Source: Gammaproteobacteria bacterium
GTDB lineage: Bacteria; Pseudomonadota; Gammaproteobacteria; JADZEE01
NCBI GenBank assembly: GCA_020850735.1
Contig: JADZEE010000027.1
Coordinates: forward strand, 1-24,000
Length of the DNA stretch: 24,000 bases
Direction: 5' to 3'
Shown here: positions 1,989-17,491 of the stretch, piece after piece
How the letters are laid out: every line of letters begins with the position of its first letter
How positions within the stretch are numbered: the first letter of the stretch is position 1
Translations under genes and position numbers: made by a program
Notes under the pieces: generated by a model
The model's database searches: none
The model's input: the letters and a program-made list of their open reading frames with translations, nothing else
Told to the model about the DNA's origin: nothing

Positions 1989-3611
1989 ATGCCCCTGACC
2001 CCCGAGATGCGCCGCTCGATCGAACAGATCCGCGACTACCTGTACGGCGGCGGCTACCCCGATCCGGTCAGCAATGCCGAGCAGCTCGCGTTCCTGTTCT
2101 TCTTCTATCTGATCGAGGGCATCGACGCCGAGAATGCGGCCCGGGCCAAGGTGCTCAAGCGGAAGCATGAGAGTCTCTTCGGCGGCTCATGGACCCTGAA
2201 GAACCCGCTGAACGCCCTTGAGAAGGGCGAGACGACGATCCCGAAAGAGCGCTTCCGCTGGTCCGTCTGGGCCAAGGGCCTTTCCGGCGAGCCGCTCGTG
2301 CGCTTCGTGCGCGATGAGGTCTTTGCGTTCTTCACCGAGGTGGCCGGGAACGGCGCCGTCAACTTCATGCACGGCGCGCGCCTCGGTATCGACGAGCCCA
2401 CCGTGCTGACGCAGGTCGTGACCCTCGTCGATGGCCTGCGGCTGGATCGCTCGGATGCGGACACCAAGGGCGACCTGTTCGAGCACGTCTTGAAGCAGAT
2501 CAAGCAGGCGGGCGAGCTGGGCCAGTTCCGCACGCCGCGCCACATCATCCGCGCCATCGTCGAGATCATCGATCCGAAGATCGGCGAGACCATCTACGAC
2601 CCGGCGGCGGGAACGGCCGGGTTCCTGGTCGCAGCCTACAACCACATCCGGCTTGCGAACTCGTCGCCGGGCGGCATCCAGAGCGTCGATTTCGACGGCA
2701 AGGTGCAGACCCGCGGCCTCGGCGACAAGCTCTCGGCCGCGCATGTCTCGGCGCTCCAGAACCAGACTTTCTTCGGTAATGATGTCGATCCGAAAATGGT
2801 GCGCCTCGCCACGATGAACCTCACGCTGCGCGGCCTGCCGAACGTGCGCATCCTGCTGCGTAACGTCCTGACCACCACGTTTGATGTCGAGCGCAAGGCC
2901 GAGCTGGGTCTGCCGCAGGAGGGCTATCACGTCGTCCTCGCCAATCCGCCGTTTTCCGGCAGGGTAGACCGGGATCGGATCGTCGATGACGTGAAAGTCG
3001 GGACGACCACTGCAACCGAGCTGCTGTTCCTCAAGTACATGATGGACAGCCTGCGTCCGGGCGGGCGCTGCGGCGTCATCGTGCCCGAGGGCGTGCTGTT
3101 CGGATCGACCGGCGCCCACAAGGAGCTGCGGCGTCAGTTGATCGAGAACAACCGCGTCGAGGCGGTGATGAGCCTGCCGGGCGGGGTATTTCAGCCGTAT
3201 TCCAGCGTGAAAACCTCGGTGCTTTTCTTCAGGAAAGGCGGCAAGACCGAAAACGTGCTTTTCCTGCACGCGGATAACGACGGCTACAAGCTCGATGCCA
3301 ACCATGACCAGCCCATCGAAGCCGATGACTTGCCGACGCTGATCACCGCTTATCGTGAGCGCGAGGCGGGACTGAAGGCTTGGGAAAAGCGCGATCCGAA
3401 AGCGGAGTGGAGCGGGCAGTGGTGGTTTGCCGATGAGGCTACGCTCCGGGCGAACGACTTCAACCTGTCAGCCGGGCGTTACCGTCCCATGAGCCAGCAG
3501 CAGGTTAAGCACCGGGACCCGCGCGAGCTGCTGGACGAACTGGCGGCCATTGAGTCCGAGATCGTCGAAGAAGTTGAAGCGCTGCGAGCGGCGCTGGGCG
3601 AGGCTGCATGA
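1989..3611 (+). CDS. hsdM: Type I R-M N6-adenine DNA methyltransferase subunit (HsdM)
   Basis: ATG at 1989 is preceded by GGAAGGA. AdoMet-binding motif I 'DPAAGTAGFL' and catalytic motif IV 'NPPF' (LANPPFSG) are present. 540 aa. Its stop overlaps the hsdS start (ATGA at 3608-3611). Confidence 0.93.
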   Translation: MPLTPEMRRSIEQIRDYLYGGGYPDPVSNAEQLAFLFFFYLIEGIDAENAARAKVLKRKHESLFGGSWTLKNPLNALEKGETTIPKERFRWSVWAKGLSGEPLVRFVRDEVFAFFTEVAGNGAVNFMHGARLGIDEPTVLTQVVTLVDGLRLDRSDADTKGDLFEHVLKQIKQAGELGQFRTPRHIIRAIVEIIDPKIGETIYDPAAGTAGFLVAAYNHIRLANSSPGGIQSVDFDGKVQTRGLGDKLSAAHVSALQNQTFFGNDVDPKMVRLATMNLTLRGLPNVRILLRNVLTTTFDVERKAELGLPQEGYHVVLANPPFSGRVDRDRIVDDVKVGTTTATELLFLKYMMDSLRPGGRCGVIVPEGVLFGSTGAHKELRRQLIENNRVEAVMSLPGGVFQPYSSVKTSVLFFRKGGKTENVLFLHADNDGYKLDANHDQPIEADDLPTLITAYREREAGLKAWEKRDPKAEWSGQWWFADEATLRANDFNLSAGRYRPMSQQQVKHRDPRELLDELAAIESEIVEEVEALRAALGEAA

Positions 3612-4858
3612 ATTGGCCGGAAAGGACGCTAGGGGACGTTTGCGAGATCAATCCTCGTCTACCGCGCGATCACGGTCTCGCGGACGACATGTCAGTTTCT
3701 TTTGTCCCAATGGCGGCGGTTGACGAGGTATCAGGCGTCGTGCGGGACAAGCAGCAACGCCCATTTCTTCAGGTTAAGAAGGGGTATACCAGTTTCCGTG
3801 ACGGCGATGTGCTGTTCGCCAAGATCACGCCCTGCATGGAGAATGGGAAAGCCGCTGTCGCGAGTGATTTGCTCAACGGAGTCGGCTTTGGCTCGACGGA
3901 GTTTCACGTTCTTCGACCAAAGGCCGGTGTGTTAGCTGAGTGGATTTACTACTTCGTAAGGAGGGAGCCCTTCCGTAGGGAGGCGAAGCGGAATTTCACT
4001 GGGACCGCCGGGCAACAGCGCGTGCCGGCAACTTTCCTTGCGAACTGTCGCATACATATTCCGCCTCTCGACGAGCAACGCCGGATTATTGATCTGCTCT
4101 CCCGCGCCGAAGGAATTATCAGACTGCGGCGCGAGGCGCAGAAGAAGGCCGCCGAAATCATCCCCGCGCTCTTCATCGACATGTTCGGCGACCCGGCGAC
4201 GAATCCGAAGGGGTGGGTCGAAACGACACTTGGAAATGTCGTTGACGAGTTTCGCTACGGAACCTCTCAGAAATCGGGAACGCTCGGACTGCCGACGCTA
4301 CGAATCCCGAACGTCATTGGCGACAGACTCGACCCGACGGAGATCAAACTCGTCTCCGTGCCCGACGTTGAGGCCAATCGCCTGCGTCTGCGCGACGGCG
4401 ATTTCCTCTTTGTTCGCACCAACGGAAATCCCGACTACGTTGGGCGGAGCGCCGTCTATGAATCGCATGTCATGCGGAACGCGGGATTCGATGGCGACAA
4501 CTGCCTCTATGCCTCCTACCTGATTCGAGCGCGCCTAAAGCTCGACGCCGTCAACCCCCGGTACCTTCAGTCCTTCCTATCGACTTCCGAGGGCCGCAAG
4601 CGTCTCCGCGAGCAGGCGCGGACATCGGCAGGGCAGTACAACATCAACACCGAGGGTCTAGCCAGTATCCGTATTCCGCTGCCATCCATTCAGCTCCAGA
4701 CTGACTATGAAGAGCGTTGCCGCCCGTTGTTCGGACTTCGAGACCTACAGTCAGTGGCGAGTGCGAAAGCAGAGGGCGCCTTCAGCGCCCTTGTCGCGCG
4801 GACGTTTTCTGGGGCCAAGCAGGCACACGACAACCCGGTGGAGGTTGCCGTCGCATGA
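3608..4858 (+). CDS. hsdS: Type I R-M specificity subunit (HsdS)
   Basis: 416 aa with two variable target-recognition halves separated by conserved helical regions ('PPLDEQRRIIDLLSRAEGIIRLRREAQKKAAEIIPALF' centrally, 'LPSIQLQTDYEERCRPLF' distally). It sits after hsdM with a 4-bp overlap. It looks more AT-rich than hsdR/hsdM, as expected for a swappable specificity gene. Confidence 0.9.
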   Translation: MNWPERTLGDVCEINPRLPRDHGLADDMSVSFVPMAAVDEVSGVVRDKQQRPFLQVKKGYTSFRDGDVLFAKITPCMENGKAAVASDLLNGVGFGSTEFHVLRPKAGVLAEWIYYFVRREPFRREAKRNFTGTAGQQRVPATFLANCRIHIPPLDEQRRIIDLLSRAEGIIRLRREAQKKAAEIIPALFIDMFGDPATNPKGWVETTLGNVVDEFRYGTSQKSGTLGLPTLRIPNVIGDRLDPTEIKLVSVPDVEANRLRLRDGDFLFVRTNGNPDYVGRSAVYESHVMRNAGFDGDNCLYASYLIRARLKLDAVNPRYLQSFLSTSEGRKRLREQARTSAGQYNINTEGLASIRIPLPSIQLQTDYEERCRPLFGLRDLQSVASAKAEGAFSALVARTFSGAKQAHDNPVEVAVA

Positions 4859-5025
4859 AGTACCCATATGAAGACATGAGTGAGGACCAGTTCGAGAAGC
4901 TCGTCGCCCTCATCTGTCAGAAGTTGCTCGGCATATCTGTGCAACCGTTCGCAAAGAGGCCAGACGGCGGGCGCGACGCGCTTGGCCGCACGGAGCAGAG
5001 GATCAAGCATTGTCTATTGTCCTGA
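4855..5025 (+). CDS. 56-aa ORF resembling only the N-terminal part of an Mrr-like/PD-(D/E)XK restriction-endonuclease domain (small protein or gene remnant)
   Basis: Internal ATG of the listed ORF 4717..5025. ATG 4855 overlaps the hsdS stop (ATGA), and GGAGG lies 10 nt upstream. The sequence MKYPYEDMSEDQFEKLVALICQKLLGISVQPFAKRPDGGRDA fits the 'xxDFExLvxxLLxxlG...F..g.DGGxD' opening of Mrr-cat-type domains. It stops 15 codons later, before any (D/E)xK strand. Its 3' end overlaps the Argonaute start by 16 nt. Confidence 0.4.
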   Translation: MKYPYEDMSEDQFEKLVALICQKLLGISVQPFAKRPDGGRDALGRTEQRIKHCLLS

Positions 5026-7202
5026 ATGCATTCCGGCTGAAAGTCCCGGACTTGTACCTTGAAGCCCGCCAGGTTTCCTACGACCAGGAAACACTTGAAG
5101 GCCTTCGCACGAAGCACGGCACTACCCACGCCTTCCGCCGACAGGGCGAGAGCATCCTTGTATTCTCGCCAGACGGAAACTTTCCCGTATCCGGTGCGAA
5201 GCAGACGATTGGGCTCAAGGACAATTTCGGCATTTTCTGCTTCTTGGTCAAGGACGGACTGACGCGGCATCTGGCCGGTCTTGGCCGTCGTCCTGTCGGC
5301 TTCACGCCCATCGAACTGGTGAGCGCTAAGCCTGAAGATAATCTTCTCGTTCCGATTCTCGGAGAGGCCTACCCTTTTCAAGTCTGCGCCAAGTACGCAA
5401 TCCACACGCGCTACGTTCAGGGCCATCCCAGTCTGGTCATTGACTGCACCACGCGGCGGGTGCTGAAGGAGACGTGTCTGTTTTTCCTTCGAGCCGGTTT
5501 CGATCTCAACGGCCGCTATGTTGCAATTGAGGAAGAGGACGGATACCGGAAGTTTCTCGGGTCGGTGAGCGCGCAGAAGGGTGACACGCTTTATGTGACG
5601 CGGCCTGACGGACAGACTGAGCAAGTCGAAGCGAAAGACATTTATCTGGAAGCCAGCCGGACGAACTTCGACGACTACGTATCCCATACGCATGGTGCGC
5701 AGAAGGACGCAATCGTCGAGCGCATCCGCCAATCTGTGTCGTCGTTTAATGGCGGCGAGAACAAGAAGACTCGCATCGATACGCTCAAGAGATACGTACA
5801 GTCGAAGTCCATTCCCCTGATCGACGGAACCCGCATTGAAATCGAGGACGCGCCTGATATTCAGCGTCACTGCGACCAGATGCCGAAGCCGGTATTCGTC
5901 TTCAATGACAACGGCGAGGCCGATTGGGTGGAGAAAGGCCTGACGCAGTACGGTCCATATACAAAGCGCACGTTTGACCGAAACGATCCGTCTATCTGCG
6001 TCATCTGTGCGCAACACGACAAGGGGCGCGTGGAGCAGTTCGTCCGCAAGCTCCTAAAAGGGATTTCCTCAAGCAAGTATTTCAGCAGTGGCCTTGAAGG
6101 TAAGTTCACTCTGGGAACCAGCCGCGTCGAGGTGTTCGCAACGGCCACGGACAGTGTGGAGGCATACAAGAACGCGATAGAAGCGGCGATCCGGAAGAAA
6201 GCGGAAGACGGGGGACGCTGGGACCTCGCGCTTGTTCAGGTCCGGCAGTCGTTCAAGAAGCTCAAGGTGACGGAGAATCCCTACTACCTGGGGAAGAGCC
6301 TTTTCTTCCTGCATCAGGTTCCTGTTCAGGACTTCACGATAGAGCTTCTCGCCCAGTCGGACTACTCGCTGGGGTATTCGCTCAACAATATGGCGCTAGC
6401 CTGCTACGCGAAGATGGGCGGTGTTCCTTGGCTACTCAAGTCCTCGCCGACGCTTTCCCACGAGCTGGTGATAGGCATTGGCAGCGCAAATATCGGGCAG
6501 GAGCGAGGCGCCGATAAGCAGCGGATCATGGGTATTACCACCGTGTTCTCAGGGGACGGCAGCTACATCGTTTCGAATACTTCGAAGGCTGTAGTGCCGG
6601 AGGCCTATTGCGAGGCGTTGACGGCGGTGCTCGGAGAGACAATCGAGAAGATCCAGAAGCGCATGAACTGGCAAAAAGGCGACACGATCCGCCTGATCTT
6701 TCACGCGCAGGTCAAGAAGTTCAACAAAGAGGAGATTGGCGCCGTCCGTGCCGTGATCGACAAGTACCGCGAATATCAGGTCGAGTATGCGTTCCTGAAA
6801 ATCTCCGAGGATCACGGGCTGCACATGTTTGACACTGCTCCGGCAAGGGAGAAGAAGGGGCGATTGGCTCCCCACCGTGGAAAGACGTTCAAGCTCTCAA
6901 ATCACGAAATGCTTGTCTACCTTATAGGTCAGCGCGAGCTGCGGCAGGATACCGATGGGCATCCGCGCGGCGTAATCCTTGATGTTCACAAGGACTCGAC
7001 CTTCAAAGACATCAAGTATCTCAGTGCCCAACTTTATAGCTTTGCGTCGCACTCGTGGCGCAGCTATTTTCCGAACCCCATGCCTGTGACGATCAGCTAT
7101 TCCGACCTGATCGCCAGGAATCTCGGGTGGATGAATCAGCTTCCGGGATGGAATGATTCGATAATGATCGGGAAGATTGGGCAATCCCAGTGGTTTCTGT
7201 AG
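5010..7202 (+). CDS. Long prokaryotic Argonaute (pAgo), catalytically degenerate (long-B-like)
   Basis: 730-aa ORF. TTG start at 5010 with GAGGA 7 nt upstream. The N-terminus 'SIVLNAFRL' resembles the LNxF opening of pAgos. MID/PIWI signature: 'VTENPYYLGKSLFFLHQVPVQDF...YSLNNMALACYAKMGGVPWLLKS...HELVIGIGSANIG'. Y-x3-K...Q...K residues match a 5'-end binding pocket. By-eye alignment to the TtAgo DEDX positions gives G (GIGSA vs GFDAG), H (RLIFHAQ vs LLLRDGR) and a retained D (SYSDLIA vs HLADRLV). Confidence 0.88.
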   Translation: MSIVLNAFRLKVPDLYLEARQVSYDQETLEGLRTKHGTTHAFRRQGESILVFSPDGNFPVSGAKQTIGLKDNFGIFCFLVKDGLTRHLAGLGRRPVGFTPIELVSAKPEDNLLVPILGEAYPFQVCAKYAIHTRYVQGHPSLVIDCTTRRVLKETCLFFLRAGFDLNGRYVAIEEEDGYRKFLGSVSAQKGDTLYVTRPDGQTEQVEAKDIYLEASRTNFDDYVSHTHGAQKDAIVERIRQSVSSFNGGENKKTRIDTLKRYVQSKSIPLIDGTRIEIEDAPDIQRHCDQMPKPVFVFNDNGEADWVEKGLTQYGPYTKRTFDRNDPSICVICAQHDKGRVEQFVRKLLKGISSSKYFSSGLEGKFTLGTSRVEVFATATDSVEAYKNAIEAAIRKKAEDGGRWDLALVQVRQSFKKLKVTENPYYLGKSLFFLHQVPVQDFTIELLAQSDYSLGYSLNNMALACYAKMGGVPWLLKSSPTLSHELVIGIGSANIGQERGADKQRIMGITTVFSGDGSYIVSNTSKAVVPEAYCEALTAVLGETIEKIQKRMNWQKGDTIRLIFHAQVKKFNKEEIGAVRAVIDKYREYQVEYAFLKISEDHGLHMFDTAPAREKKGRLAPHRGKTFKLSNHEMLVYLIGQRELRQDTDGHPRGVILDVHKDSTFKDIKYLSAQLYSFASHSWRSYFPNPMPVTISYSDLIARNLGWMNQLPGWNDSIMIGKIGQSQWFL

Positions 7203-8350
7203 AAAAAGAGAACGCCTACCAGTTGCGCGAGTACCTTCAGCGTAAGGTATCCGAAAGCGCGCACGGCGATCCGTTCAAATCGTCCTTTCTGCGTTTTCTA
7301 GGACTCTCGAAGGACGGCGGGTCAGCTTTCGACGCTACCAAGCTCTCCTTGTACCAGCGGTGTGCGGTCTCCGGGCTTGACGTTTGGGGAGTGACCGTAC
7401 CTGCTCAGGATGTGTCGCGACTGCTGGGGCAGGCCGCCAAGATCGACTCTACGCCCCGGCCCTGGGTGTCTGATGTTTTCGGCGTGATGGCCGTGAAGCG
7501 GCTCGTCGACAGGCTGAACGACAACCGCATCGTCCGTGAGTTCGAGCACTGGACTGCTGGCTTCCTTGCGCAGCAGGTCGGCGGTGACCACCTCAATCTC
7601 TTTGAAAAGGACATCGCGACCCTTATCCGCAGTGGGGAGTCCGCCGTCTATGCGACCGCCTGCGTTCCGCTCTTTCTTCATTATCAAGCGATCAGGAGGA
7701 TTGACGATCACCAGCTTCGTCTGTCCCTCATAAATCGGTTCATGCACGAATTCCGGCAGCAGGCGCAAGCAGATTCTTCGACGGCGCTACTGGGGGTGAT
7801 GGTCTACGTCTTCGACCAGATCAACGAAGATGTCGCCGTTGTGCCGCCGAAGGGCTGGAGCCTCGACGATCTTCTGATCTTTCTGGAGCATGTTCCCGTT
7901 GGCCTAAAGCGCTGGACTTGGGAAGACGCGGGGCGCACGAAAGGCGCGGTACCTGCCAAATGGCGCGTTGATAACGAATACCACGTCCAGAATCTGCTCT
8001 ACGTGTTGCTTGCGCCCGTCTTTAGTGACATCGCGGATGAAGTATATCTGCAACCAGTTGGGCAGAAGACGCCGCGGGTGGACTTGTACTTGCCGCCTCT
8101 GAACACAATCATCGAAGTTAAGTATCGGAAGGACGCGAAGAAGTCGTTTCCGATGCTCATCGGCGAGATCGCCGAGGATGCGTCTCTCTATCGGGCCGAC
8201 GCAAAATACAAAGATGTACGGATTGTCAGCTTCCTGTGGGATTGCACGCGCGCGACGCAGGAGCACACAAAATTCAAAGAGGGCGTATTGAAGATCGACG
8301 GCATGAATGGGTGCGTCGTGATCAGTGCGCCATCGACAATGAATGAGTGA
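7190..8350 (+). CDS. pAgo-associated protein with C-terminal PD-(D/E)XK nuclease fold motif and unrecognised N-terminal domain
   Basis: 386 aa. GTG 7190 overlaps the pAgo stop by 13 nt; an alternative TTG at 7223 is possible, so the start is uncertain. The C-terminal region 'DNEYHVQNLLYVLLAPVF...TPRVDLYLPPLNTIIEVKYRKD' gives the E...D...E-x-K arrangement of restriction-endonuclease-like nucleases. The first ~250 aa match nothing I recognise. Confidence 0.75.
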   Translation: MVSVEKENAYQLREYLQRKVSESAHGDPFKSSFLRFLGLSKDGGSAFDATKLSLYQRCAVSGLDVWGVTVPAQDVSRLLGQAAKIDSTPRPWVSDVFGVMAVKRLVDRLNDNRIVREFEHWTAGFLAQQVGGDHLNLFEKDIATLIRSGESAVYATACVPLFLHYQAIRRIDDHQLRLSLINRFMHEFRQQAQADSSTALLGVMVYVFDQINEDVAVVPPKGWSLDDLLIFLEHVPVGLKRWTWEDAGRTKGAVPAKWRVDNEYHVQNLLYVLLAPVFSDIADEVYLQPVGQKTPRVDLYLPPLNTIIEVKYRKDAKKSFPMLIGEIAEDASLYRADAKYKDVRIVSFLWDCTRATQEHTKFKEGVLKIDGMNGCVVISAPSTMNE

Positions 8351-8505
8351 TCTCGGCCGTACTGCCGAAGCGCGGGACGGCGACCGAACGTCGTAGTTGT
8401 GGCCGGTGCTGCGTTGCCAGGCCTGAATTCCCACCCGACTGTTAGCATTGCTAACGGCCAGCCAGTCATGCCATGAATGCGGAGTAAGTTGCTACGGAAC
8501 TTTCT

Positions 8506-8847
8506 TCATAGTTCGAGGATCACACTGTCAACCGCAAGAGGTCGGCATTCGTTGAACGACCATCTCGCACACAGTGCGCCCAGGCATTCACCGAAGACAT
8601 CACTGGACGCACCTGCACGATCTTGAATTTCGTTGGCTGTGTCAGCCCGCTTGATGCTCGTTACGCATCGCCCACGCTCGAAAGAGCGCCCGAAACCGGC
8701 CTCATCTCCTGAAAGCCGGTGGCCGCAAGGCTCGGAGGTATCCGTAAGCAACCGCCTCTCGGGGCGCTCAGCAATGCGCATGACGCAATAGTTCGCGTTC
8801 CTGCCGCAGTTCGTAAGTGGCGCCAGCAAGCGGAATTCCGTTTGCAT
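8506..8847 (-). CDS. Possible Cys-rich hypothetical protein or degraded gene (very uncertain)
   Basis: Internal ATG (8847) of the listed ORF 8506..9018, with GAGG 9 nt upstream. Third-position GC looks moderately coding-like. No recognisable family. The upstream part of the listed ORF is Ala/Arg/Trp-rich and unconvincing. Confidence 0.15.
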   Translation of the reverse strand: MQTEFRLLAPLTNCGRNANYCVMRIAERPERRLLTDTSEPCGHRLSGDEAGFGRSFERGRCVTSIKRADTANEIQDRAGASSDVFGECLGALCARWSFNECRPLAVDSVILEL

Positions 8848-9048
8848 CGGCGTCAACCTCGAGCGGGGTTTCTCTCCGTTCTCAGTCTGTACCGCTGCCC
8901 CTGCTGAACGCTTGGTGCGCCAACCGCGCGTCCATGCGTAAGGCTCGCGGGCGGACCCCTGCCAGCACGCCGCGACGGCCTTGGCCGCCGCAATCCCTGC
9001 GCCAACATGTGTCCGCACTCCTGCGGCAATCCGTGGCTGCGCCAGCCG

Positions 9049-9191
9049 GCGTCGTCACTGGCGGCTTGCTGCTAGTGACGACGCGCCATATGCCTCAGTC
9101 ATCAACGAGTTATAGGGTGCTGGCGCAAGTGACGACCCCTCGCGATGCGCTCTTCTGGCGCATCGCACCGTAACAACCGCGCAATGCGGTT
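9049..9191. repeat. Cluster of GC-rich inverted repeats plus a reiterated 9-mer in a non-coding region
   Basis: Perfect 11-bp inverted repeat GCGTCGTCACT (9049-9059) / AGTGACGACGC (9074-9084) with a 14-nt spacer. The 9-mer AGTGACGAC recurs in direct orientation at 9128-9136. Perfect 9-bp inverted repeat GCGATGCGC (9142-9150) / GCGCATCGC (9158-9166) with a 7-nt loop. 6-bp inverted repeat AACCGC/GCGGTT (9175-9191). Confidence 0.6.
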
Positions 9192-9482
9192 CGTCCATCG
9201 GCCCGTTCCTCGACGGGCATCGTTCCACGTCGCGCGCAATCCGCGCACCCCTGAGCCTTGGGTGATGGCTCATCTCGAAGGATCGACTTCCAACAGGAAG
9301 CGGCCTCGATGCCAATGCCACGTGTCGGGCAGGCAAGCAGCAAAAACTACGGCACAAAACGGGAGTGGTGTCCCGGGTCCCTCGAAGTACTCGTCCTGCC
9401 CAGGCAGGCGAGACGGACAGAAACACTAACCGGACATGCGGCACGCACCAGGGGCAATTGAGCAACGAACGAAGAGGACGCG

Positions 9483-10349
9483 ATGAGAGACCTGAACTAC
9501 GAACTGAAGCAACTCTGCCTGCGCAACCGCGACGGCAGCTTTTCCACGCAGTACGCGCGCGAGCGCATTCTGACCATGATCGCCAATCAGTTGCACGAGA
9601 TGGGCTTCCATCACATGCAGGCGGCGAGCCTGAAGCCTAAGCATGTCGAGGCACTGGTCGAGCGCTGGAAGGCGGAATCCCTTTCCGCCGGCACGATCAA
9701 GAACCGGATGACCGAGCTGCGCTGGTGGGCCGAGAAAGTGGCCAAACAGAATGTGCTGGCTCGCGCCAACGAATTCTACGGCATCCCGCGACGGAATTAT
9801 GTGACCAATGTCAGCCGGTCACGGGTGCTCACCACCGGGGACCTGGAGAAGCTCACCGATCCCTGGACGCGCATGTCGCTCAAGTTGCAGGCGGCCTTCG
9901 GTTTGCGGCGGGAGGAGTCGATCAAGATCCGGCCCGAGTGGGCCGACCGCGGCGACCGGCTCGCGCTCAAGGCGAGCTGGACCAAGGGTGGGAGGGAGCG
10001 CGAGATTCCGATTCGCACGGCAGAGCAGCGCCTAGTACTCGACGAAGCCAAGCAGCTCGCGGTCCGCGGAAGCCTGATCCCAAAGGCGTCGAGCTACGTC
10101 CAGCAGTTGCAGCGATTCAAGGCGCAGTGCATGGCGGCGGGAATTCAGCACGTGCACGGCCACCGCCACCAGTACGCGCAGGATCGCTACCGCGTACTGA
10201 CCGGCTGGGCCTGTCCCGCGCAAGGCGGGCCGACCTCGAAGCAGCTCACCTACGAGCAGAAAGCTATCGATCGCCAGGCCCGTCTCGCGATCAGCGCGGA
10301 GCTGGGCCACGGTCGCGAAAGAATCACATCGGTCTATCTCGGCCGGTAG
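9483..10349 (+). CDS. Tyrosine recombinase/integrase-family protein (plasmid/ICE-type 'integrase domain-containing protein')
   Basis: 288 aa. ATG 9483 is preceded by GAAGAGGA. N-terminal SAM-like region 'LKPKHVEALVERWKAESLSAGTIKNRMTELRWW'. Catalytic-type residues in order: 'GLRREES' (R), 'HGHRHQYAQ' (HxxR), 'LGHGRERITSVYLG' (H...Y). Confidence 0.8.
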   Translation: MRDLNYELKQLCLRNRDGSFSTQYARERILTMIANQLHEMGFHHMQAASLKPKHVEALVERWKAESLSAGTIKNRMTELRWWAEKVAKQNVLARANEFYGIPRRNYVTNVSRSRVLTTGDLEKLTDPWTRMSLKLQAAFGLRREESIKIRPEWADRGDRLALKASWTKGGREREIPIRTAEQRLVLDEAKQLAVRGSLIPKASSYVQQLQRFKAQCMAAGIQHVHGHRHQYAQDRYRVLTGWACPAQGGPTSKQLTYEQKAIDRQARLAISAELGHGRERITSVYLGR

Positions 10350-10852: not shown

Positions 10853-11143
10853 ATGGGAATCTCCACCAACGACGTTATTCCGCTGTCGCAGGCCCGCGCC
10901 AACTTTTCGGAGCTGGCTGAGGAGGTCAAGGCCGGCGCCGAGAAGATCATCACCAAGAACGGCGAGAGCTACGTGGCGCTGATCGACGCGGAGCGGTTGG
11001 ACCATTACCACCGGCTGGAGCGCGAACGCATTCACTTGCTGTTGATCGATGAGGCGGGCAAGGGGCTCGACGATGTCGCCGCCGGCCGCGTGAAGGATGC
11101 CCGCGGCACAATCCAGTCGATCAAGCGCCGCCGCAGCGCGTAA
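10853..11143 (+). CDS. Phd/YefM-family type II antitoxin
   Basis: 96 aa. 'ISTNDVIPLSQARANFSELAEEVKAGAEKIITKNGESYVALIDAERLDHY' is the canonical Phd/YefM N-terminal fold sequence. Strong SD. A toxin gene follows 20 nt downstream. Confidence 0.85.
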   Translation: MGISTNDVIPLSQARANFSELAEEVKAGAEKIITKNGESYVALIDAERLDHYHRLERERIHLLLIDEAGKGLDDVAAGRVKDARGTIQSIKRRRSA

Positions 11144-11162
11144 GACGGTCGGAGCGGTCCCG

Positions 11163-11570
11163 ATGGCGAGGAAGCCTGTCGTCCGGCTCACCGCGAACTT
11201 CGAGAGCAACCTCGCCGACATCGAGCGTTTTCTGACCGAGGCTGAAGCGCGCAAAGCTTACGACGCGCTGCTCGACGAACTGCTGGACACCGTGATTCCG
11301 AACCTCGAACGGTTTCCCGGCATTGGACGGCCGTTCCTCGCGCATCCGGCGCGCTCGGTCGAAACCTCGAATGCGCTGGACGCATTGCGCGCGAAGTTAT
11401 CGGCGCTGACTCCGGACCCGGAAGCACTGCGCGAATACATCCTCGACCACTATCTGGTGCTGTACGCGCAGATTGACGCGAATCTCTATCTGCTGGCGAT
11501 CAGGCATCACCGCCAACTGTCGTTCGATTTCCAGTCGCACTGGGGCGGGACTTCGTCGATGCCAAAGTGA
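11163..11570 (+). CDS. ParE/RelE-family type II toxin (with an internal insertion)
   Basis: Internal ATG (11163) of the listed ORF 11097..11570, 135 aa. 'LADIERFL...NLERFPGIGRP' and C-terminal 'YLVLYAQIDANLYLLAIRHHRQL' match the ParE/RelE pattern (..rfP..Gr......y.i.Y......i.il.i.H.r). It sits directly after a Phd/YefM antitoxin. It is longer than typical toxins because of a ~30-aa insert (ARSVETSNALDALRAKLSALTPDPEAL). Confidence 0.75.
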   Translation: MARKPVVRLTANFESNLADIERFLTEAEARKAYDALLDELLDTVIPNLERFPGIGRPFLAHPARSVETSNALDALRAKLSALTPDPEALREYILDHYLVLYAQIDANLYLLAIRHHRQLSFDFQSHWGGTSSMPK

Positions 11571-11764: not shown

Positions 11765-12604
11765 TTACGGAGTTTCGCGGAAGGCCGGCGACTGCATGCG
11801 CACGATGGCCATCGCGTTCAGCGGGATGCGGGGATTCGGCTGGGCGTATAAGCAGCGGTCGGGCATCGGCAGCGTGCCACCAGTGGCGCGGGCCGCGAAG
11901 TAGTCCTCGACCTGCGCGCGCCATTCGCCTTCCGGCGCCTGCGGATTCAAGCCGGCGGCGTACAGGCGCAGCAGCGTCGCGATGGTGTTGTTCACCAGCG
12001 GGACGTACATGGGGTAGCAATAGGTCACGCGGATCTTCAGCAGGTTGGCGTCCTGGATGCTCACACCGCCCTTCACCGTGGCCGGGCGGTACATCAGGTT
12101 GTCGTTCGGGATCTCGTATCCGCCGCTGACGTCGACACCGTGATTCGATGTCTGGAAGTGCTCCGGGCGCGGATTGAGGATCTCGATGTCGACCCACGTG
12201 TCATTGGTGGCGCCAGCGGGGATCACGGGTCCCGGGGGGGGATCGCCGCCGGCCTGGCAGGCGTACTCGTCGCCGCCGTACAGCTCGGTGCGAACCACGC
12301 AGCGGGCGCGGCGGACGCCGTCCGCCGTGTCGTCGTGCGTGAACAGCGGCGCGAGGCCGCGAACGAAACCGTTCTCGATGAAATTCATGCGCGCGTTGTT
12401 CAGCGATCCGGAGCGGGCGGCTTCGAACGCGGCGTAGTTCAGGGTGATCTTGGCGTGATAGATGAGTGCGAACTGCAGGGCGCCGAACACGAGCAGCAGC
12501 AGGACCGAGCCGACGATCACGCTTTCGACCATGGCTTGGCCCCGTTGTCGCGACCGCTGCACGAAACGGTACCGCATGGACGGAATTCTAGCAGGGCGGC
12601 TCAC
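11765..12604 (-). CDS. TadE/TadG-like pseudopilin (Flp pilus assembly)
   Basis: 279 aa. Leader plus hydrophobic segment 'QRGQAMVESVIVGSVLLLLVFGALQFALIY' (G-x4-E prepilin-like junction and TadE-like helix). GTG 12604 overlaps the upstream stop (GTGA); an alternative ATG lies at 12577. Last gene of the tad operon. Confidence 0.7.
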   Translation of the reverse strand: MSRPARIPSMRYRFVQRSRQRGQAMVESVIVGSVLLLLVFGALQFALIYHAKITLNYAAFEAARSGSLNNARMNFIENGFVRGLAPLFTHDDTADGVRRARCVVRTELYGGDEYACQAGGDPPPGPVIPAGATNDTWVDIEILNPRPEHFQTSNHGVDVSGGYEIPNDNLMYRPATVKGGVSIQDANLLKIRVTYCYPMYVPLVNNTIATLLRLYAAGLNPQAPEGEWRAQVEDYFAARATGGTLPMPDRCLYAQPNPRIPLNAMAIVRMQSPAFRETP

Positions 12605-13674
12605 GGCTCACCGCCGTTTTCGCCGTTGCGCGTGACCTCGTCCTCACCAGGGCCACTGGTCGCGGTGGCGGCGGCAGGCCCGGATTCCGGCGCATCCGTC
12701 CCGGTATCGGCGTCATCGCCGGCCGTGGCATCGTCCTCCGCGGCGCCGGTCGTGCCTGTGTCCTCGACGATACCGCCGGTCGTGACCTCGTCCGCGATCG
12801 TGCCGGCGCTCACAGCGGTGGCGGCAGGCCCGGGTTCCGTCACCGCCGGGTCGTCCGGCGCGGGTGCGGGCGGCGGCGCGTCCGCTCCGGTATCGCCGCC
12901 GTCGCCGGCCGTGGCATCGTCCTCCGCGGCGCCGGTCGTGCCTGTGTCCTCGACGATACCGCCGGTCGTGACCTCGTCCGCGATCGTGCCGGTGCTCACA
13001 GCGGTGGCGGCAGGCCCGGGTTCCGTCACCGCCGGATCGTCCGGCGCGGGTGAGGGCGACGGTGCGCCCGTCCCGGTGTCGCCAGCCGCAGCCGGTACGG
13101 TTGCCGCCCCGTCACCCGCGCTGTCGTCGGCCGCGGTCGCCGGCACGACCTCGAGCGGGGACGGCGCGGCCTGCGGCGGCGATGCCGGCGGGTTGCCGGC
13201 AGCGGTCTGATCGCCGCCTTCCAGCAGCGCGGCGACGCCGCCGAGCAGGGACCTGGCACGGTCGCGCAGGGGATCGTTCGCCGACGCGAACTGATCCATC
13301 TGCGCGAAAGTGGCCGCCGCCTCGCGCAACTGCACCACGCCCATGTTGTGCCAGGCCTTGCTCATGCCGGGTTCACGCAGCACGGCTTCCCGGTAGGCGG
13401 CGACGGCCTCGGCCGGCCGGCCGAGGCGCGCGTAGACATTCCCCAGCCGGAACCAGGATTCAGTGACCCGCGGCGCGCGCTCGGTGAGCGTCTTGTAAGC
13501 GGCGGCGGCCTGGTTCCAGTCGCCGCCGTCGTAGGCGGCCGCCGCGCTGCGCTCGATGGCGTACAGATCCCCCTTCGGCGTGTCCGGGCGCGTCACGTCC
13601 TCGAGGCTGCAGCCGGCCAGCCAGGCCAGCGCGATCATCAACGCCGGCGTCGCGATCCTCGTCCGGCGGGCCAC
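12601..13674 (-). CDS. TPR-repeat lipoprotein (TadD-like) with an acidic repeat-containing C-terminal tail
   Basis: Start proposed at GTG 13674 (GGGAGA 9 nt upstream, 1 nt after the DUF192 stop) rather than the listed 13728. Lipobox 'LAWLAGC' follows the basic n-region 'ARRTR'. TPR-like segment 'WNQAAAAYKTLTERAPRVTESWFRLGNVYARLGRPAEAVAAYREAVLREPGMSKAWHNMG'. The C-terminal ~190 aa are a T/G/D/A/E-rich tandem repeat. Confidence 0.75.
   Translation of the reverse strand: MARRTRIATPALMIALAWLAGCSLEDVTRPDTPKGDLYAIERSAAAAYDGGDWNQAAAAYKTLTERAPRVTESWFRLGNVYARLGRPAEAVAAYREAVLREPGMSKAWHNMGVVQLREAAATFAQMDQFASANDPLRDRARSLLGGVAALLEGGDQTAAGNPPASPPQAAPSPLEVVPATAADDSAGDGAATVPAAAGDTGTGAPSPSPAPDDPAVTEPGPAATAVSTGTIADEVTTGGIVEDTGTTGAAEDDATAGDGGDTGADAPPPAPAPDDPAVTEPGPAATAVSAGTIADEVTTGGIVEDTGTTGAAEDDATAGDDADTGTDAPESGPAAATATSGPGEDEVTRNGENGGEP
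12668..13050. repeat. 186-bp (62-codon) near-perfect tandem repeat inside the TadD-like gene
   Basis: The landmark 'ggcaggcccgg' recurs at 12673, 12823 and 13009. Units 2 and 3 are 186 bp apart, and the first unit is 36 bp shorter. A ~140-nt block (from about 12718 and about 12904) is identical apart from 2 mismatches seen by eye. It encodes PAPDDPAVTEPGPAATAVS(T/A)GTIADEVTTGGIVEDTGTTGAAEDDATAGD. Confidence 0.85.
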
Positions 13675-13675
13675 G

Positions 13676-14029
13676 TCAGCAGGTCTCCCACACGAGCGTG
13701 TCACCCACGGCGAGCGCCAAGGCCGCATTCGCGCCCGGGGCGAGCTCCAGAGTCATCGACGCGGCCAGGCAGGCTGACAGGCGGGCCGGCGCGAGCTCGC
13801 GCACGAGCTTGACCACCGCCCAGGCCGTGTCGAGGTACACCAGGTCGATCGCGCCGCGCATGCCGAAGGTGTGCACGCAGCGGCAGCGATCGATGAGCAG
13901 CCCCGTTCCCGGAGCCAGGGGAGGACGCCCGAGCAGCCCGCGCATGCGTTCCCACGCGGTCGTCGTCAGCGAAACATCGCCGAGCAGGGTGGAATGATCT
14001 TTCTTGCGGCGCAGGCGGCCGGCGATCAC
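13676..14029 (-). CDS. DUF192 (COG1430)-family protein embedded in the tad operon
   Basis: Only the last 117 codons of the listed 400-aa ORF 13676..14878 are credible. GTG 14029 overlaps the tadC stop (GTGA). 'AWERMRGLLGRPPLAPGTGLLIDRCRCVHTFGMRGAIDLVYLDTAWAVVKLVRELAP...LELAPG' fits the DUF192 pattern (er..GLmgr..l....gml......vhtfgM...iDvvflD..g.Vv). Confidence 0.7.
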   Translation of the reverse strand: MIAGRLRRKKDHSTLLGDVSLTTTAWERMRGLLGRPPLAPGTGLLIDRCRCVHTFGMRGAIDLVYLDTAWAVVKLVRELAPARLSACLAASMTLELAPGANAALALAVGDTLVWETC

Positions 14030-14922
14030 AACGTACCTTCGGCCATGAACTTCATCACGATGGGAAATCCGAGCACCACGAAGGTGACCGGGAAGATGAA
14101 AACGATGAGCGGGAACACGAGCTTCACGGGTGCTTCCATCGCCACCTTTTCCGCGCGCGTGAAGCGTTCGTTGCGACGCTGCTCGGCCTGCACCCGCAGC
14201 ACGGCCGCGAGGCTCGAACCCATACGTTCGGCCTGGATCATCGACGTGACGAAGCTGGTGACCTCGGGGATGTCGAGGCGCTCGGCCATGCGCCGCAGCG
14301 AATCGGCACGGCTCAGGCCCGAACGCAGATCGCGCAGCACGATACCGAACTCGTTGCGCAGCGGTCCCGGCGGCGCCTTTTCCATCGCCTGGGCGAGTCC
14401 CCCCTGCAGGTTCAGGCCCGCCTCCACCGCCATGGTGATGAAGTCCAGGTACACCGGCATGGCGCGCACTACGGCCAGCTCGCGCTTGCGCCGCGTGTCG
14501 CGCAGCCACAGCGTCGGGAACAGAAAGCCCAGGAAGGGCGCGAGTATGTGCACCACGGGCGGGATGTTGACCGGCAGGGCGACGTCCATGTACAGCGACA
14601 GCACCAGGAAGAAGATGGCGGACAGGATCCGCAGCCCGATGAACTGCTCCGCGGTCACCATGTAACTGACGCCCGTCTTCTGCAGCTTGTCTTCCGTGCT
14701 CTCGAGGTATTCGTAGGGCAGAAACTGCACGAAGAAATGGGCGATGATCCGCACCAGCGGCCAAATGGGTCTCATCAGCGGCGGAATCGGATCCATGAAC
14801 GAGCGGTCCTCGTCCTCCACCATCCCGTGCAGCAGGTGGATGGTCATGAGGAAGCAGAATACGCTCAGCCCGGTGCACAGCGCGCTGACCTCGAACATAC
14901 GGTTGACGAGAAATTCCTGCAT
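14026..14922 (-). CDS. tadC: Flp pilus assembly inner-membrane platform protein TadC (T2SS F family)
   Basis: 298 aa polytopic membrane protein. T2SSF-like cytoplasmic domain 'LPVYLDFITMAVEAGLNLQGGLAQAMEK...LRNEFGIVLRDLRSGLSRADSLRRMAERL'. It is the second platform gene after the ATPase. Confidence 0.85.
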   Translation of the reverse strand: MQEFLVNRMFEVSALCTGLSVFCFLMTIHLLHGMVEDEDRSFMDPIPPLMRPIWPLVRIIAHFFVQFLPYEYLESTEDKLQKTGVSYMVTAEQFIGLRILSAIFFLVLSLYMDVALPVNIPPVVHILAPFLGFLFPTLWLRDTRRKRELAVVRAMPVYLDFITMAVEAGLNLQGGLAQAMEKAPPGPLRNEFGIVLRDLRSGLSRADSLRRMAERLDIPEVTSFVTSMIQAERMGSSLAAVLRVQAEQRRNERFTRAEKVAMEAPVKLVFPLIVFIFPVTFVVLGFPIVMKFMAEGTL

Positions 14923-14927
14923 GGCGG

Positions 14928-15809
14928 CTACACGTCGATCCGGGTGATTTTGCGGATGAAGAAATTACCGAGCCCCAGCCACACGATGATGCCGGCGAGC
15001 ACTCCCCAGCCGACCTTGGTCGTCCACAGCTTGGACATTGCCTCGGGCTCGAGCATGTACAGCAGCACGGCGAGCAGGAACGGCAGCAGGCTCATGACGA
15101 TGCCCTGCAGCTTGCCCTGGGCGGTGAGACTGTCGATCTTGCCTTCCATCATCTGTTTGCGGCGCAGGGTGTCGGCCAGCGACTCGAGTGTTTCGGCCAG
15201 ATTGCCGCCGACCTCCCGGCTGATACGCATCGCCGACATCACCATGGTGAAATCCTGCAGCGGCATGCGCTTTTCCATGTTGTCCAGCGACTTCTCGAAG
15301 TCCAGGCCCAGGCGCTGCTCGCGCATGAACAGCTCGAACTCCTGGCTGAGCGGTGGCGGTTGCTCCTTGACCAGGGACTCCAGCGCGATGTTCAGGCTCG
15401 CACCGGCGCGCATCGATCCGGAAACGAGCAGCAGGCCGTCGGGCAGCTGCCGTTCAAAGCGTTTCAGCCTCTTTTTGCGCATCGCGCGGTAGAAAAACCC
15501 CGGCAGGATGATCAGCACGCCGAGCAGCACCAGCGCCGAGATTGCGTCGCGCGTGATCGCCCACACCAGCAGCGGCAGCACCACGATCGCGGCGATGTTC
15601 ATGTAGAACAGCCTCGTCGCGTCGACGAACATGAACATGTCCGCCATGTTCGTGCTCGCGCTGTCGGTGAAGGTCGACTGGTAGCGCGCCATGAAACTCT
15701 GCCCCTGGACGAGCGTGGCGTAGACCAGCAGCGCCGCCGACAGGAAGGCGAGTGTTATGACGACCAGGAACAGGATGTCGCCACCGATGTCGAGCATGAA
15801 TGCCTTCAT
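14928..15809 (-). CDS. tadB: Flp pilus assembly inner-membrane platform protein TadB (T2SS F family)
   Basis: 293 aa. T2SSF-like domain 'QLPDGLLLVSGSMRAGASLNIALESLVKEQPPPLSQEFELFMREQRLGLDFEKSLDNMEKRMP' plus flanking TM segments. Lies directly downstream of cpaF. Confidence 0.85.
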   Translation of the reverse strand: MKAFMLDIGGDILFLVVITLAFLSAALLVYATLVQGQSFMARYQSTFTDSASTNMADMFMFVDATRLFYMNIAAIVVLPLLVWAITRDAISALVLLGVLIILPGFFYRAMRKKRLKRFERQLPDGLLLVSGSMRAGASLNIALESLVKEQPPPLSQEFELFMREQRLGLDFEKSLDNMEKRMPLQDFTMVMSAMRISREVGGNLAETLESLADTLRRKQMMEGKIDSLTAQGKLQGIVMSLLPFLLAVLLYMLEPEAMSKLWTTKVGWGVLAGIIVWLGLGNFFIRKITRIDV

Positions 15810-15820
15810 GGCGGGGCCCC

Positions 15821-17482
15821 CTACTGGAAGATGCTCATGTCGACGCCGATACCGCGTTCGCGTAGTTCCTCGTAGAACTCCGGAATGCGCCCCGTCGCGT
15901 GGTAGTGCCCGCGTACCTTACCGTTTTCGTCGAAACCCTGCTGCTGGAAGCGGAAGATGTCCTGCATCTGCACCACGCCGCTTTCGACGCCCGTGATCTC
16001 GCTGATGTTGACGACCTTGCGGCTGCCGTCGGCGAAGCGGGATATCTGCACGATGATGTCCACGGCCGAGGCCACCATCTCGCGGATCGCGAGCGCGGGC
16101 AGATCCATGCCCGACATCATCACCATGACCTCGAGACGGGAAATGAGGTCACGCGGACTGTTCGCGTGCGCCGTGGTGAGCGAGCCGTCGTGGCCGGTGT
16201 TCATGGCCTGGAGCATGTCCAGCGCCTCGCCGCCACGGCACTCGCCGACGACGATGCGGTCCGGCCGCATGCGCAGGCAGTTCTTGACCAGGTCGCGGAT
16301 GTGGATCGCGCCCTTGCCCTCCAGGTTCGGTGGCCGTGCCTCCAGGCTGACGATGTGCGGCTGCCCGAGCTTGAGCTCGGCGGCGTCCTCCACGGTGACG
16401 ATGCGCTCGGCGGAAGGAATGTAGTTCGACAGCACGTTGAGCAGTGTCGTCTTGCCGCTGCCGGTGCCGCCGGAGATGACGATGTTCTTGCGCATCTCCA
16501 CCGCCACCTTCAGGAACTTGAACATGTTGGCGTCGGCGGCGCCGAACTTGACGAGGTCCGTGTCCGCGAGCTTCTGTTTGGAGAACTTGCGGATGGTGAT
16601 GCAGGGTCCCCGCAGCGCGAGCGGCGGGATGATGGCATTGACGCGCGAGCCGTCCTTCAGGCGCGCGTCGACCATCGGTGAGCTCTCGTCGATGCGCCGG
16701 CCGAGCGGTGAGACGATGCGCTCGATCGCGGACATGACCGCGTCGTTGCTCGAGAACGTGACCGTGGATTTCTGCAGCCGGCCGGCCTTTTCGATGAAGA
16801 TCTCGTCGAACTTGTTGACCATCACTTCGGTGATGTCGTCCTGGGCGAGCAGCTCCTCCAGCGGACCGAGACCGACGGCCTCGTTGAGCACGTCGACCTC
16901 GAGCTGCTGCTTGTCGATGTTGGCCGGGAGCTTCCCGCTCATGGCCTCGACAATCTCGTGGATCATGTTCTGGACGTGTTTCCTGAGCCTGTCCTCGCTC
17001 ATGGCGCCGATGTCGGTGCGGCGCAGGTCCATGGCCTCGAGCAACTCGGAGTGGACGCGGTTGCGCCACTTGTAGCGCTCCTCCTTGAAGACCGTGGAAT
17101 CCTCCTTGATCTCGACGTGCCGCGACACGCCGATCATGGTCTTGACGTCCTCGATGTCCTCGGAATAGTCGTCGTCGGCATCCGCGGTCTCGTCGATGCC
17201 GACACTGATGAAATACGAACCGATCCGCACGACGTCCGAGGCGCGCAGCGGTCCGTGGCGTTCGACCTTCTGGTCGTTGACGTAGGTGCCGGGGCTCTTG
17301 CTCTTGTCCTCGATGAAGATGCCCTGGGCGTTGCGAGAGAGCTCCGCGTGATGCGGGGCTATGCGCCAGCCGCGCAGCTGGATCAGGTTGTCGCGCGCCT
17401 TGCCGATGCCGCACTCGTTGATCGGGCAGCGCACGCCGTGAACCTTGCGGCCTTTTTCGTCTTTTACGACCACATCGAACAT
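15821..17482 (-). CDS. cpaF: CpaF/TadA-family pilus secretion ATPase with an N-terminal FHA domain
   Basis: 553 aa. N-terminal FHA pattern ('CGIGKARDNLIQLRGWRIAPHHAELSRNAQGIFIEDKSKSPGTYVNDQKVERHGPLRASDVVRIGSYFISV'). T2SSE core with Walker A 'SGGTGSGKTT', 'IVTVEDAAEL', 'RMRPDRIVVGECRGGEALDMLQAMNTGHDGSLTTAHAN'. Confidence 0.93.
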   Translation of the reverse strand: MFDVVVKDEKGRKVHGVRCPINECGIGKARDNLIQLRGWRIAPHHAELSRNAQGIFIEDKSKSPGTYVNDQKVERHGPLRASDVVRIGSYFISVGIDETADADDDYSEDIEDVKTMIGVSRHVEIKEDSTVFKEERYKWRNRVHSELLEAMDLRRTDIGAMSEDRLRKHVQNMIHEIVEAMSGKLPANIDKQQLEVDVLNEAVGLGPLEELLAQDDITEVMVNKFDEIFIEKAGRLQKSTVTFSSNDAVMSAIERIVSPLGRRIDESSPMVDARLKDGSRVNAIIPPLALRGPCITIRKFSKQKLADTDLVKFGAADANMFKFLKVAVEMRKNIVISGGTGSGKTTLLNVLSNYIPSAERIVTVEDAAELKLGQPHIVSLEARPPNLEGKGAIHIRDLVKNCLRMRPDRIVVGECRGGEALDMLQAMNTGHDGSLTTAHANSPRDLISRLEVMVMMSGMDLPALAIREMVASAVDIIVQISRFADGSRKVVNISEITGVESGVVQMQDIFRFQQQGFDENGKVRGHYHATGRIPEFYEELRERGIGVDMSIFQ

Positions 17483-17491
17483 GGCGGTTCT

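Follow-up and report, generated by a model that had tools for sequence, protein, structure and literature searches.

The question raised by this locus is what kind of system is formed by a gene for a prokaryotic Argonaute (pAgo) and the nuclease gene that overlaps its 3' end. The two genes occupy positions 5010-8350 of a stretch of 24,000 nucleotides from Gammaproteobacteria bacterium (assembly GCA_020850735.1, contig JADZEE010000027.1, positions 1 to 24,000), which is called the window below. A first-pass annotation made from the letters of the window had described the Argonaute as a long-B-like protein with a degenerate catalytic centre, which should bind a guide but not slice and must signal to a partner effector. 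The hallmark of BPAN systems is a pAgo gene upstream of a gene for bAgaN, a RecB-like PD-(D/E)XK nuclease, in a two-gene operon (Song et al. 2023, PMC10620215). The window pair has the same gene order, an overlap on the same strand, the helical and PD-(D/E)XK domains and the D-EVK motif. With a probability of about 90%, we consider it to be an intact BPAN abortive-infection system that is orthologous to the Escherichia coli system (EcBPAN) and would work as in E. coli.

The pAgo gene (5010-7202, forward strand) encodes 730 amino acids (aa) from a TTG start codon. The motifs PYYLGK, HQVPVQ, NNMALACYAKMGGVPWLL, LVIGIGSA and LIFHAQ, from which a MID-PIWI core had been read by eye, were all found in the translation, and the profile searches that had been proposed as a check bore this core out. 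Pfam Piwi matched with an E value of 8.3e-10 (38.8 bits, cut-off 28.9), and PADLOC pAgo_II covered residues 4-730 with an E value of 1.6e-287; PAZ was not matched in the Pfam search. The best match among the PDB sequences was EcAgo, the Argonaute of EcBPAN (23wq), with 1347 bits over residues 1-730, followed by three RsAgo sequences (about 1e-76), AfPiwi (about 4e-14) and the long-A protein CbAgo (1.2e-3). In a global alignment pAgo and EcAgo were 79.2% identical (578/730) with one single-residue indel. An identical protein from a Gammaproteobacteria metagenome-assembled genome (MAG) is present in NCBI nr as 'stem cell self-renewal protein Piwi domain-containing protein'.

EcAgo consists of 731 aa, with the domains N (1-92), L1 (92-155), a small hairpin-like PAZ (155-218), L2 (218-308), MID (308-484) and PIWI (484-731; EcBPAN cryo-EM paper). 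With these limits transferred, the N-terminal half of pAgo (5010-5927) comprises N (aa 1-92), L1 (93-154), a shortened PAZ (155-217) and L2 (218-306), and is followed by MID (aa 307-483, 5928-6458) and a PIWI domain with a degenerate tetrad (PIWI*, aa 484-730, 6459-7202), which ends in L730; all lie on the forward strand. The region of the shortened PAZ aligned with the approximately 60-residue hairpin-like PAZ of EcAgo (155-218) with only a single-residue indel. The assignment to the long rather than the short Argonautes was thus upheld by an alignment with EcAgo from end to end and by an N-terminal half of about 306 aa.

An AlphaFold model of pAgo that was based on an alignment of 67 diverse relatives had a mean pLDDT of 92.6 and a pTM of 0.91, with pLDDT values of 85-98 in the N-terminal half; an earlier run with a shallow alignment had reached a pLDDT of 52. 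In Foldseek the model was superimposed on guide-RNA/target-DNA complexes of RsAgo with TM scores of 0.90-0.92, compared with 0.66-0.71 for the slicing long-A Argonautes CpAgo, CbAgo, KmAgo and TtAgo. This comparison used a PDB copy older than 23wq, the EcAgo entry. The RsAgo equivalog profile NF052569 of NCBIfam matched only aa 161-730 with 338.6 bits (cut-off 700), so the protein is a relative of RsAgo and not its equivalent. Long-B pAgos are characterized by a PIWI* that is inactive, a PAZ* that is usually short, a MID motif of the YK type and nucleases as frequent neighbours (Ryazansky et al. 2018). In pAgo a MID-PIWI core, a full N-L1-PAZ*-L2 half with a short PAZ*, the YK motif and a site lacking the DEDX tetrad were all found. 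Placed by search scores and TM scores, among them E values of 1e-76 for RsAgo versus 1.2e-3 for CbAgo, pAgo is a long-B Argonaute of the bAgaN-associated subclade, in agreement with the long-B placement made at first reading.

The catalytic positions were located by alignment with TtAgo, whose reference sequence was identical to PDB 3dlb across 685 residues. An hhalign profile of 23 close pAgo homologues gave no usable alignment with TtAgo (Neff 1.4). A profile of 67 diverse long-B representatives, which were obtained by exhaustive search, are 25-57% identical to pAgo and were also used for column counts, aligned with TtAgo residues 361-670 with an E value of 2.7e-5. In this register D478 of TtAgo falls on G491 (VIGIGSA), E512 on E531 (VVPEAY), D546 on H565 (LIFHAQ) and D660 on D699 (SYSDLIA). 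The corresponding codons are 6480-6482 (G491), 6600-6602 (E531), 6702-6710 (H565 to Q567) and 7104-7106 (D699), on the forward strand. In EcAgo a structural comparison assigned the tetrad to G492, E532, Q568 and D700, with the glutamate finger unplugged even in the guide-target complex (EcBPAN cryo-EM paper), and these residues map to G491, E531, Q567 and D699 of pAgo. The two registers agree at three positions and differ by two residues at the third, H565 according to the profile and Q567 according to the published assignment. Among the 67 long-B proteins, G491 was present in 62 and H565 in all, and Q567 lies within an insertion that is missing from 56 of them. The predicted exchange of the first aspartate for glycine was thus confirmed; that of the third for histidine held in the profile register but not in the published one, and neither candidate is acidic. 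Since H565, A566 and Q567 are all non-acidic, the ambiguity leaves the conclusion on slicing standing, although E531 and D699 are still acidic. EcAgo, which has the same four residues, does not cleave DNA in vitro (Song 2023, PMC10620215; Liu 2026, PMC13535254). From its sequence, pAgo should bind guide and target but not slice.

The guide pocket was conserved throughout. In EcAgo the 5'-phosphate is anchored by Y426, K430, Q441, K469 and D442 together with a Mg2+ ion held by the C-terminal carboxylate of L731, N424 touches guide base 1, and N460 forms the pocket for target base 1' (EcBPAN cryo-EM paper). The pAgo equivalents are all identical: Y425, K429, Q440, K468 and D441, N423 and N459, all in the MID domain, and the terminal L730. 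The Y-K-Q-K pocket for 5'-phosphate guides that had been proposed by eye was therefore found at the positions of the known one. Across the 67 diverse long-B proteins Y425 was conserved in 65, K429 in 64, Q440 in 67 and K468 in 66. Of the EcAgo residues that the structure paper singles out, pAgo shares 23 of 26.

The expected partner effector is encoded directly downstream. The bAgaN gene (7190-8350, forward strand, GTG start) encodes 386 aa with an N-terminal helical regulatory domain and a C-terminal PD-(D/E)XK domain. From the bAgaN GTG to the pAgo stop the two genes overlap by 13 nucleotides (nt) in the sequence (7190-7202, forward strand), which suggests translational coupling; the annotations of E. 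coli VTB96935v and of the Shewanella plasmid pSA70-2 show an overlap of the same 13 nt. PADLOC Aga_Helical-REase (class II) matched aa 8-385 with an E value of 7.7e-130, and Pfam REase_DpnII-MboI matched aa 234-382 with 1.3e-41. No TIR or SIR2 model was matched in the Pfam and PADLOC scans of bAgaN, which revealed an REase-fold domain only and no helicase domain. The alignment with the E. coli nuclease EcbAgaN, the second protein chain of 23wq, was gapless over residues 1-385 (E 1.7e-177; 67.3% identity), and 35 of 40 named EcbAgaN residues are identical. These include the D-EVK motif (D298, E309, V310, K311), which is essential in EcbAgaN (Song 2023, PMC10620215; Liu 2026, PMC13535254). One genome scan gave 40 related loci (L001-L040) with 69-92% protein identity over the matched segment. 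A bAgaN gene lies directly downstream of pAgo in 38 of them, and the remaining two end at contig ends. In the related loci bAgaN starts with GTG or ATG, and its overlap with pAgo is retained.

The surfaces by which the two proteins would meet are also largely preserved. A protruding loop of EcbAgaN, Q81-R90, inserts between MID and PIWI of EcAgo (EcBPAN cryo-EM paper), and the window bAgaN matches it at 9 of 10 positions. Of the docking residues of the Argonaute, Y317, R320, F322, R551, N553 and D558 are retained and S524 is replaced by N523, so that five of the six listed EcAgo docking contacts (Y318, R321, S524, R552, N554, D559) are identical in pAgo.

The first-pass annotation had called guide, target and outcome unknown. 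This no longer applies, as for the 79%-identical E. coli orthologue they are 5'-phosphate RNA, DNA, and collateral DNA degradation with abortive infection. The small RNAs that co-purify with EcAgo are 18-22 nt long, carry a 5'-phosphate, reflect the transcriptome and are biased towards A/U at their first positions; EcAgo prefers 5'-phosphate RNA guides and binds complementary single-stranded DNA. Robust non-specific DNase activity needs EcAgo, guide RNA, target DNA and bAgaN together. In cells EcBPAN degrades the chromosome after entry of a plasmid with a CloDF13 origin or of phage Lab02, and the protection that it gives at a low multiplicity of infection, which is absent at a high one, requires D298 of bAgaN (all Song 2023, PMC10620215; Liu 2026, PMC13535254). 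The active form is an 8:8 assembly of four Ago ternary dimers and four bAgaN dimers with octameric C-terminal nuclease domains, and its formation relieves autoinhibition by the bAgaN N-terminal domain (EcBPAN cryo-EM paper).

The gene pair, its architecture and its conserved residues were read from the window, and each biochemical step that follows is carried over from E. coli by orthology. The window pAgo would load 5'-phosphate small RNAs of about 18-22 nt drawn from the transcriptome, with the guide 5' end held in the Y425/K429/Q440/K468 pocket and by a Mg2+ ion bound to the C-terminal carboxylate of L730. The guide would base-pair with a complementary stretch of single-stranded DNA from a plasmid or phage that invades the cell; pAgo would be unable to cut this DNA because two of the four catalytic positions are non-acidic (G491, H565/Q567). 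Target-bound pAgo would dimerize and capture the Q81-R90 loop of an otherwise autoinhibited bAgaN dimer, and a large Argonaute-nuclease assembly, 8:8 in E. coli, would result. The freed PD-(D/E)XK domains (D298, E309, K311) would then degrade any DNA, that of the host chromosome included. Infected cells would die or cease to grow, and the invader would be lost from the population.

Several points weigh against this reading. The transfer of function from EcBPAN rests on 79% and 67% identity, and EcBPAN itself was triggered by one replication origin only and by one of six phages tested (Song 2023, PMC10620215; Liu 2026, PMC13535254). The Ago-Ago dimer contact differs, with E399 in place of D400 and Q725 in place of H726 (R551 is kept), and the Ago-nuclease contact has N523 for S524 of EcAgo. 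Of the bAgaN oligomer contacts 4 of 30 are substituted (E14, R189, R259, Y286), in addition to A83 within the docking loop. As a result, the window pair could differ from EcBPAN in its stoichiometry or in the threshold for activation. The interface argument is qualified by 23 close homologues, of which all have Q725 and 22 have N523, so that the E. coli protein is the outlier at both sites. Finally, promoter and terminator scans of 4400-9600 remained at chance level and revealed no promoter-like site before the pair; its expression would thus depend on upstream transcription. The remaining doubt concerns stoichiometry and triggers rather than the kind of system.

The start codon of pAgo is the norm of its family. 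The first in-frame methionine lies near residue 291, yet the preceding 290 residues align with EcAgo, and a Shine-Dalgarno sequence, AGAGGA (4997-5002), is present 7 nt before the TTG. TTG was found at the same codon in 34 of 35 related loci from several phyla, with ATG in the other one, and a similar purine-rich motif precedes it. By this sequence comparison TTG is the genuine start. The conservation of such a weak start codon suggests selection for low Argonaute expression. When pAgo was compared with nine loci, the ratio of nonsynonymous to synonymous substitution (dN/dS) was 0.05-0.08, with dS values of 1.0-1.7 and dN values of 0.07-0.12; judged by these values the gene is under strong purifying selection. 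Protein identity amounted to 80-88% across phyla despite the near-saturated synonymous sites, and the combination of a dS near saturation with a low dN means that the high identity reflects strong constraint and not only recent transfer. Such constraint on pAgo is unusually strong for a defence gene.

The limits of the conserved block were determined by blastn of window 4001-9600 against the 40 loci. Similarity began at 4976-5022 and ended at 8341-8352 in full-length loci of at least 76% identity, and it began further inside pAgo in more diverged or contig-cut loci. The DNA common to the window and the 40 loci is only the two-gene block of about 3.3 kb. It is preceded by a conserved leader (4976-5009, forward strand) that holds AGAGGA; to the left of this leader the DNA is no longer similar to other BPAN loci. 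The GC content of this cassette is 55.9%, compared with 61.7% upstream and 65.6% downstream, and the lower value is consistent with horizontal acquisition.

Upstream of the cassette lie the genes of a type I restriction-modification (R-M) system: an EcoAI/EcoEI-type hsdR, which runs off the left edge of the window and ends at 1971; hsdM (1989-3611), whose stop overlaps the hsdS start; and hsdS (3608-4858), which has two target-recognition domains and a GC content of 58.8%, below that of hsdR and hsdM. A chimeric open reading frame (ORF) of 56 codons follows (4855-5025, forward strand), whose ATG overlaps the hsdS stop (ATGA). Its first 41 or so residues resemble the N-terminus of Mrr-type restriction endonucleases (Pfam Mrr_cat E 0.0014, sub-threshold). 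The ORF changes character at about 4976, where similarity to other BPAN loci starts; from there on it matches the 3'-terminal part of the gene that precedes BPAN in four loci (L007, L010, L015, L018), and it ends about 13-16 nt inside the pAgo gene. No remainder of the Mrr-like gene was visible after 8350. The small ORF has the appearance of a scar left when recombination introduced the cassette and cut short a gene associated with the R-M system. From hsdM through bAgaN no gene is separated from the next by intergenic sequence.

These observations lead to a tentative account, which we hold to be possible but rather doubtful. The BPAN pair would have recombined into the 3' end of the R-M operon, with hsdM, hsdS, the 56-codon ORF, pAgo and bAgaN chained to each other, and the cassette could have arrived as, or descend from, an integron-type cassette of about 3.5 kb. 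If so, the R-M and BPAN defence layers would be expressed as a single unit, and an origin as an integron-type cassette would explain how a nearly invariant pair reached several phyla. A conserved linkage between R-M and BPAN was considered and rejected: in tblastn searches the window hsdR, hsdM, hsdS, ParE and other neighbours were absent from the 40 loci, save for an integrase homologue in L025.

The same junction admits a second view of the locus, namely that an old recombination dropped a decaying or silent remnant into the type I R-M operon and that the pair has lost expression or function. In favour of this view, the cassette lacks its own promoter-like site, its genes open with TTG and GTG, which are weak start codons, a neighbouring gene was destroyed at the junction on which the cassette lies, and IS2 interrupts one of the two copies found in E. 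coli. Both ORFs are, however, of full length and free of frameshifts and stops, the catalytic and pocket residues are all retained, and the low dN/dS of pAgo and its family-wide TTG start speak for a maintained gene. Chaining to hsdM-hsdS through overlapping stop and start codons also favours co-expression. We therefore regard decay as improbable.

A little less probable still is a stand-alone Argonaute of the RsAgo type, which would use RNA guides to silence plasmid DNA or promote its degradation next to an unrelated nuclease gene. RsAgo is indeed the next-best solved relative of pAgo and its best structural match in the Foldseek library (TM 0.91). The identity to it is only about 25%, in contrast to 79% for EcAgo, and the equivalog score stays far below its cut-off, which rules out an RsAgo equivalog. 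The nuclease gene overlaps pAgo and accompanies it in nearly all related loci while the other flanking DNA differs, and the residues by which EcAgo docks bAgaN are conserved. An active slicing long-A-type protein with catalytic residues misaligned by eye is hardly credible, for although two tetrad positions are still acidic, the first and third are non-acidic in either register and conserved as such among the 67 relatives, EcAgo with the same residues does not cut, and the long-A proteins are distant both by E value and by TM score. Two other assignments were also ruled out: a short pAgo by the N-L1-PAZ*-L2 half and by a partner lacking a TIR or SIR2 match, and DdmE of DdmDE by a partner of 386 aa that has an REase-fold domain only and no helicase.

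The BPAN pair, to which we return, occurs in several phyla and is rare among complete E. coli genomes. The 40 loci span Gamma-, Beta- and Alphaproteobacteria, Desulfobulbus, Acidobacteriota, Nitrospirae, Gemmatimonas and Anaerolineales. Among complete E. coli genomes the pair was present in 2 of 5,426, one of them split by IS2. In E. coli VTB96935v it adjoins hsdRMS, and RefSeq names the proteins 'argonaute/piwi family protein' and 'PD-(D/E)XK nuclease domain-containing protein'. An 86%-identical Argonaute on the conjugative MOBH plasmid pSA70-2 of Shewanella putrefaciens (CP078039.1; L042 7001-9193) is annotated as 'lipase chaperone' and its nuclease partner as 'hypothetical protein', a clear mis-annotation in the public record. 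One Alphaproteobacteria MAG contig of 1.2 Mb (JAHDXS010000001.1) carries three full BPAN pairs (L006, L008, L018), all with different upstream contexts; the L018 copy is flanked by a DNA methylase/AAA_13 ATPase pair on one side and a GmrSD restriction enzyme on the other, with a Mu-type transposase nearby.

In some loci (L022, L028, L030, L039, L009, L003) the pair is bracketed by integron-type core sites. The upstream site is GTTAGAC (R' type), 48-54 nt before the TTG, and the downstream one is an imperfect palindrome of about 75 nt starting with GTCTAAC (R'' type), about 98 nt past the bAgaN stop. These attC-like sites were detected with core-site patterns, blastn-short and folding of single-stranded DNA. 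The copies of L022, L028 and L009 were folded; the former two formed an attC-like hairpin and the L009 copy did not. Nothing was found in a direct-repeat search of L009, in a test for exact complementarity of 9-mers or in a gapless screen for attC. In L022 the sites at 3545-3622, 4721-4786 and 8476-8543 all have one orientation, and its BPAN pair appears to be a 3.5-kb integron gene cassette. No attC-like sites were detected in the window.

Downstream of bAgaN the window contains 1.1 kb without a convincing gene. Within it, 90 nt past the bAgaN stop, lies a perfect 7+7 palindrome, GTTAGCA-T-TGCTAAC (8441-8455), which is non-coding and was not an attC site by the tests used. The next gene encodes a tyrosine-recombinase-like integrase with Phage_int_SAM_2 and Integrase_1 domains (9483-10349). 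This integrase and about 0.7 kb upstream of it (window 8624-8749 and 9037-10349) are shared with a Ramlibacter MAG (L025, 17030-18808) at 68% protein identity, and in L025 an integrase of the same kind lies 4.6 kb downstream of that locus's own BPAN pair. It is possible that the pair moves as part of a shared island that bears the integrase. A type II toxin-antitoxin pair adjoins the integrase, with a Phd/YefM antitoxin (10853-11143) and its partner, a ParE toxin (11097-11570), both on the forward strand. A Tad/Flp-type pilus assembly cluster follows on the reverse strand (12601-21172) and comprises a TPR protein, DUF192, two TadB/C-like T2SSF proteins, a TadA-like T2SSE ATPase with an N-terminal FHA domain, an RcpA-like secretin and RcpC/CpaB. 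A 1392-codon ORF on the strand opposite this cluster (16958-21136) had no family match and is probably an artefact of high GC content. Neither tRNA genes nor Rfam matches were found in the window, so no tRNA attachment site or known regulatory RNA was tied to the locus.

Compared with known systems, the window pair is most like EcBPAN. Gene order and the 13-nt overlap are the same, the proteins are of similar length (730 versus 731 and 386 versus 390 aa), and the 5'-phosphate pocket, the tetrad (G/E/H-x-Q/D) and the D-EVK motif are identical, with the docking loop differing at one of ten positions. The differences lie in the host, as the window protein is deposited from a Gammaproteobacteria MAG; in a higher GC content; in the position, at the 3' end of a type I R-M operon to which the window pair is joined, whereas the E. 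coli pair lies opposite one; and in the substitutions at the Ago-Ago (E399, Q725), Ago-nuclease (N523) and bAgaN oligomer contacts.

RsAgo of Rhodobacter sphaeroides (PDB 5awh, 6d8a) shares the fold, the YK-type MID pocket, glycine at the first and histidine at the sequence-equivalent third tetrad position, and the geometry of RNA guide and DNA target. It differs in that the N-terminal 150 residues were not aligned by sequence and its fourth tetrad position is Glu rather than Asp; pAgo is also paired with an overlapping nuclease gene. BPAS and BPAM likewise consist of an inactive long-B Argonaute upstream of a toxic effector and lead to abortive infection, but their effectors are a Sir2 NADase or a membrane protein, whereas that of the window is a PD-(D/E)XK DNase. 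In DdmDE a catalytically dead long Argonaute (DdmE) also recruits an autoinhibited dimeric nuclease partner (DdmD) after target recognition; DdmE, however, uses DNA guides, and DdmD, a large helicase-nuclease, acts on the plasmid, which it unwinds and degrades, and not on the host genome. The short pAgo systems SPARTA, SPARSA and SPARDA resemble the window pair in their inactive PIWI and in the guide-dependent activation of an oligomerizing toxic effector. Short pAgos lack the N and PAZ half and depend on an APAZ-containing partner, whereas the window pAgo has its own N-L1-PAZ*-L2 half of about 306 aa.

The window pair is a new member of a well-characterized family, whose effector, guide and target preference, phenotype and activated structure are already published together with the family itself. 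Its value for discovery is small, as the profile models for defence systems already recognize both genes end to end. Its value for annotation lies in correcting the entries 'stem cell self-renewal protein Piwi domain-containing protein' and, on the plasmid, 'lipase chaperone', and it adds one natural sequence variant at the BPAN assembly interfaces. The limits of the cassette, the retained TTG, the copies flanked by attC and a dN/dS that is very low across phyla inform how BPAN spreads and leave the nature of the system unchanged.

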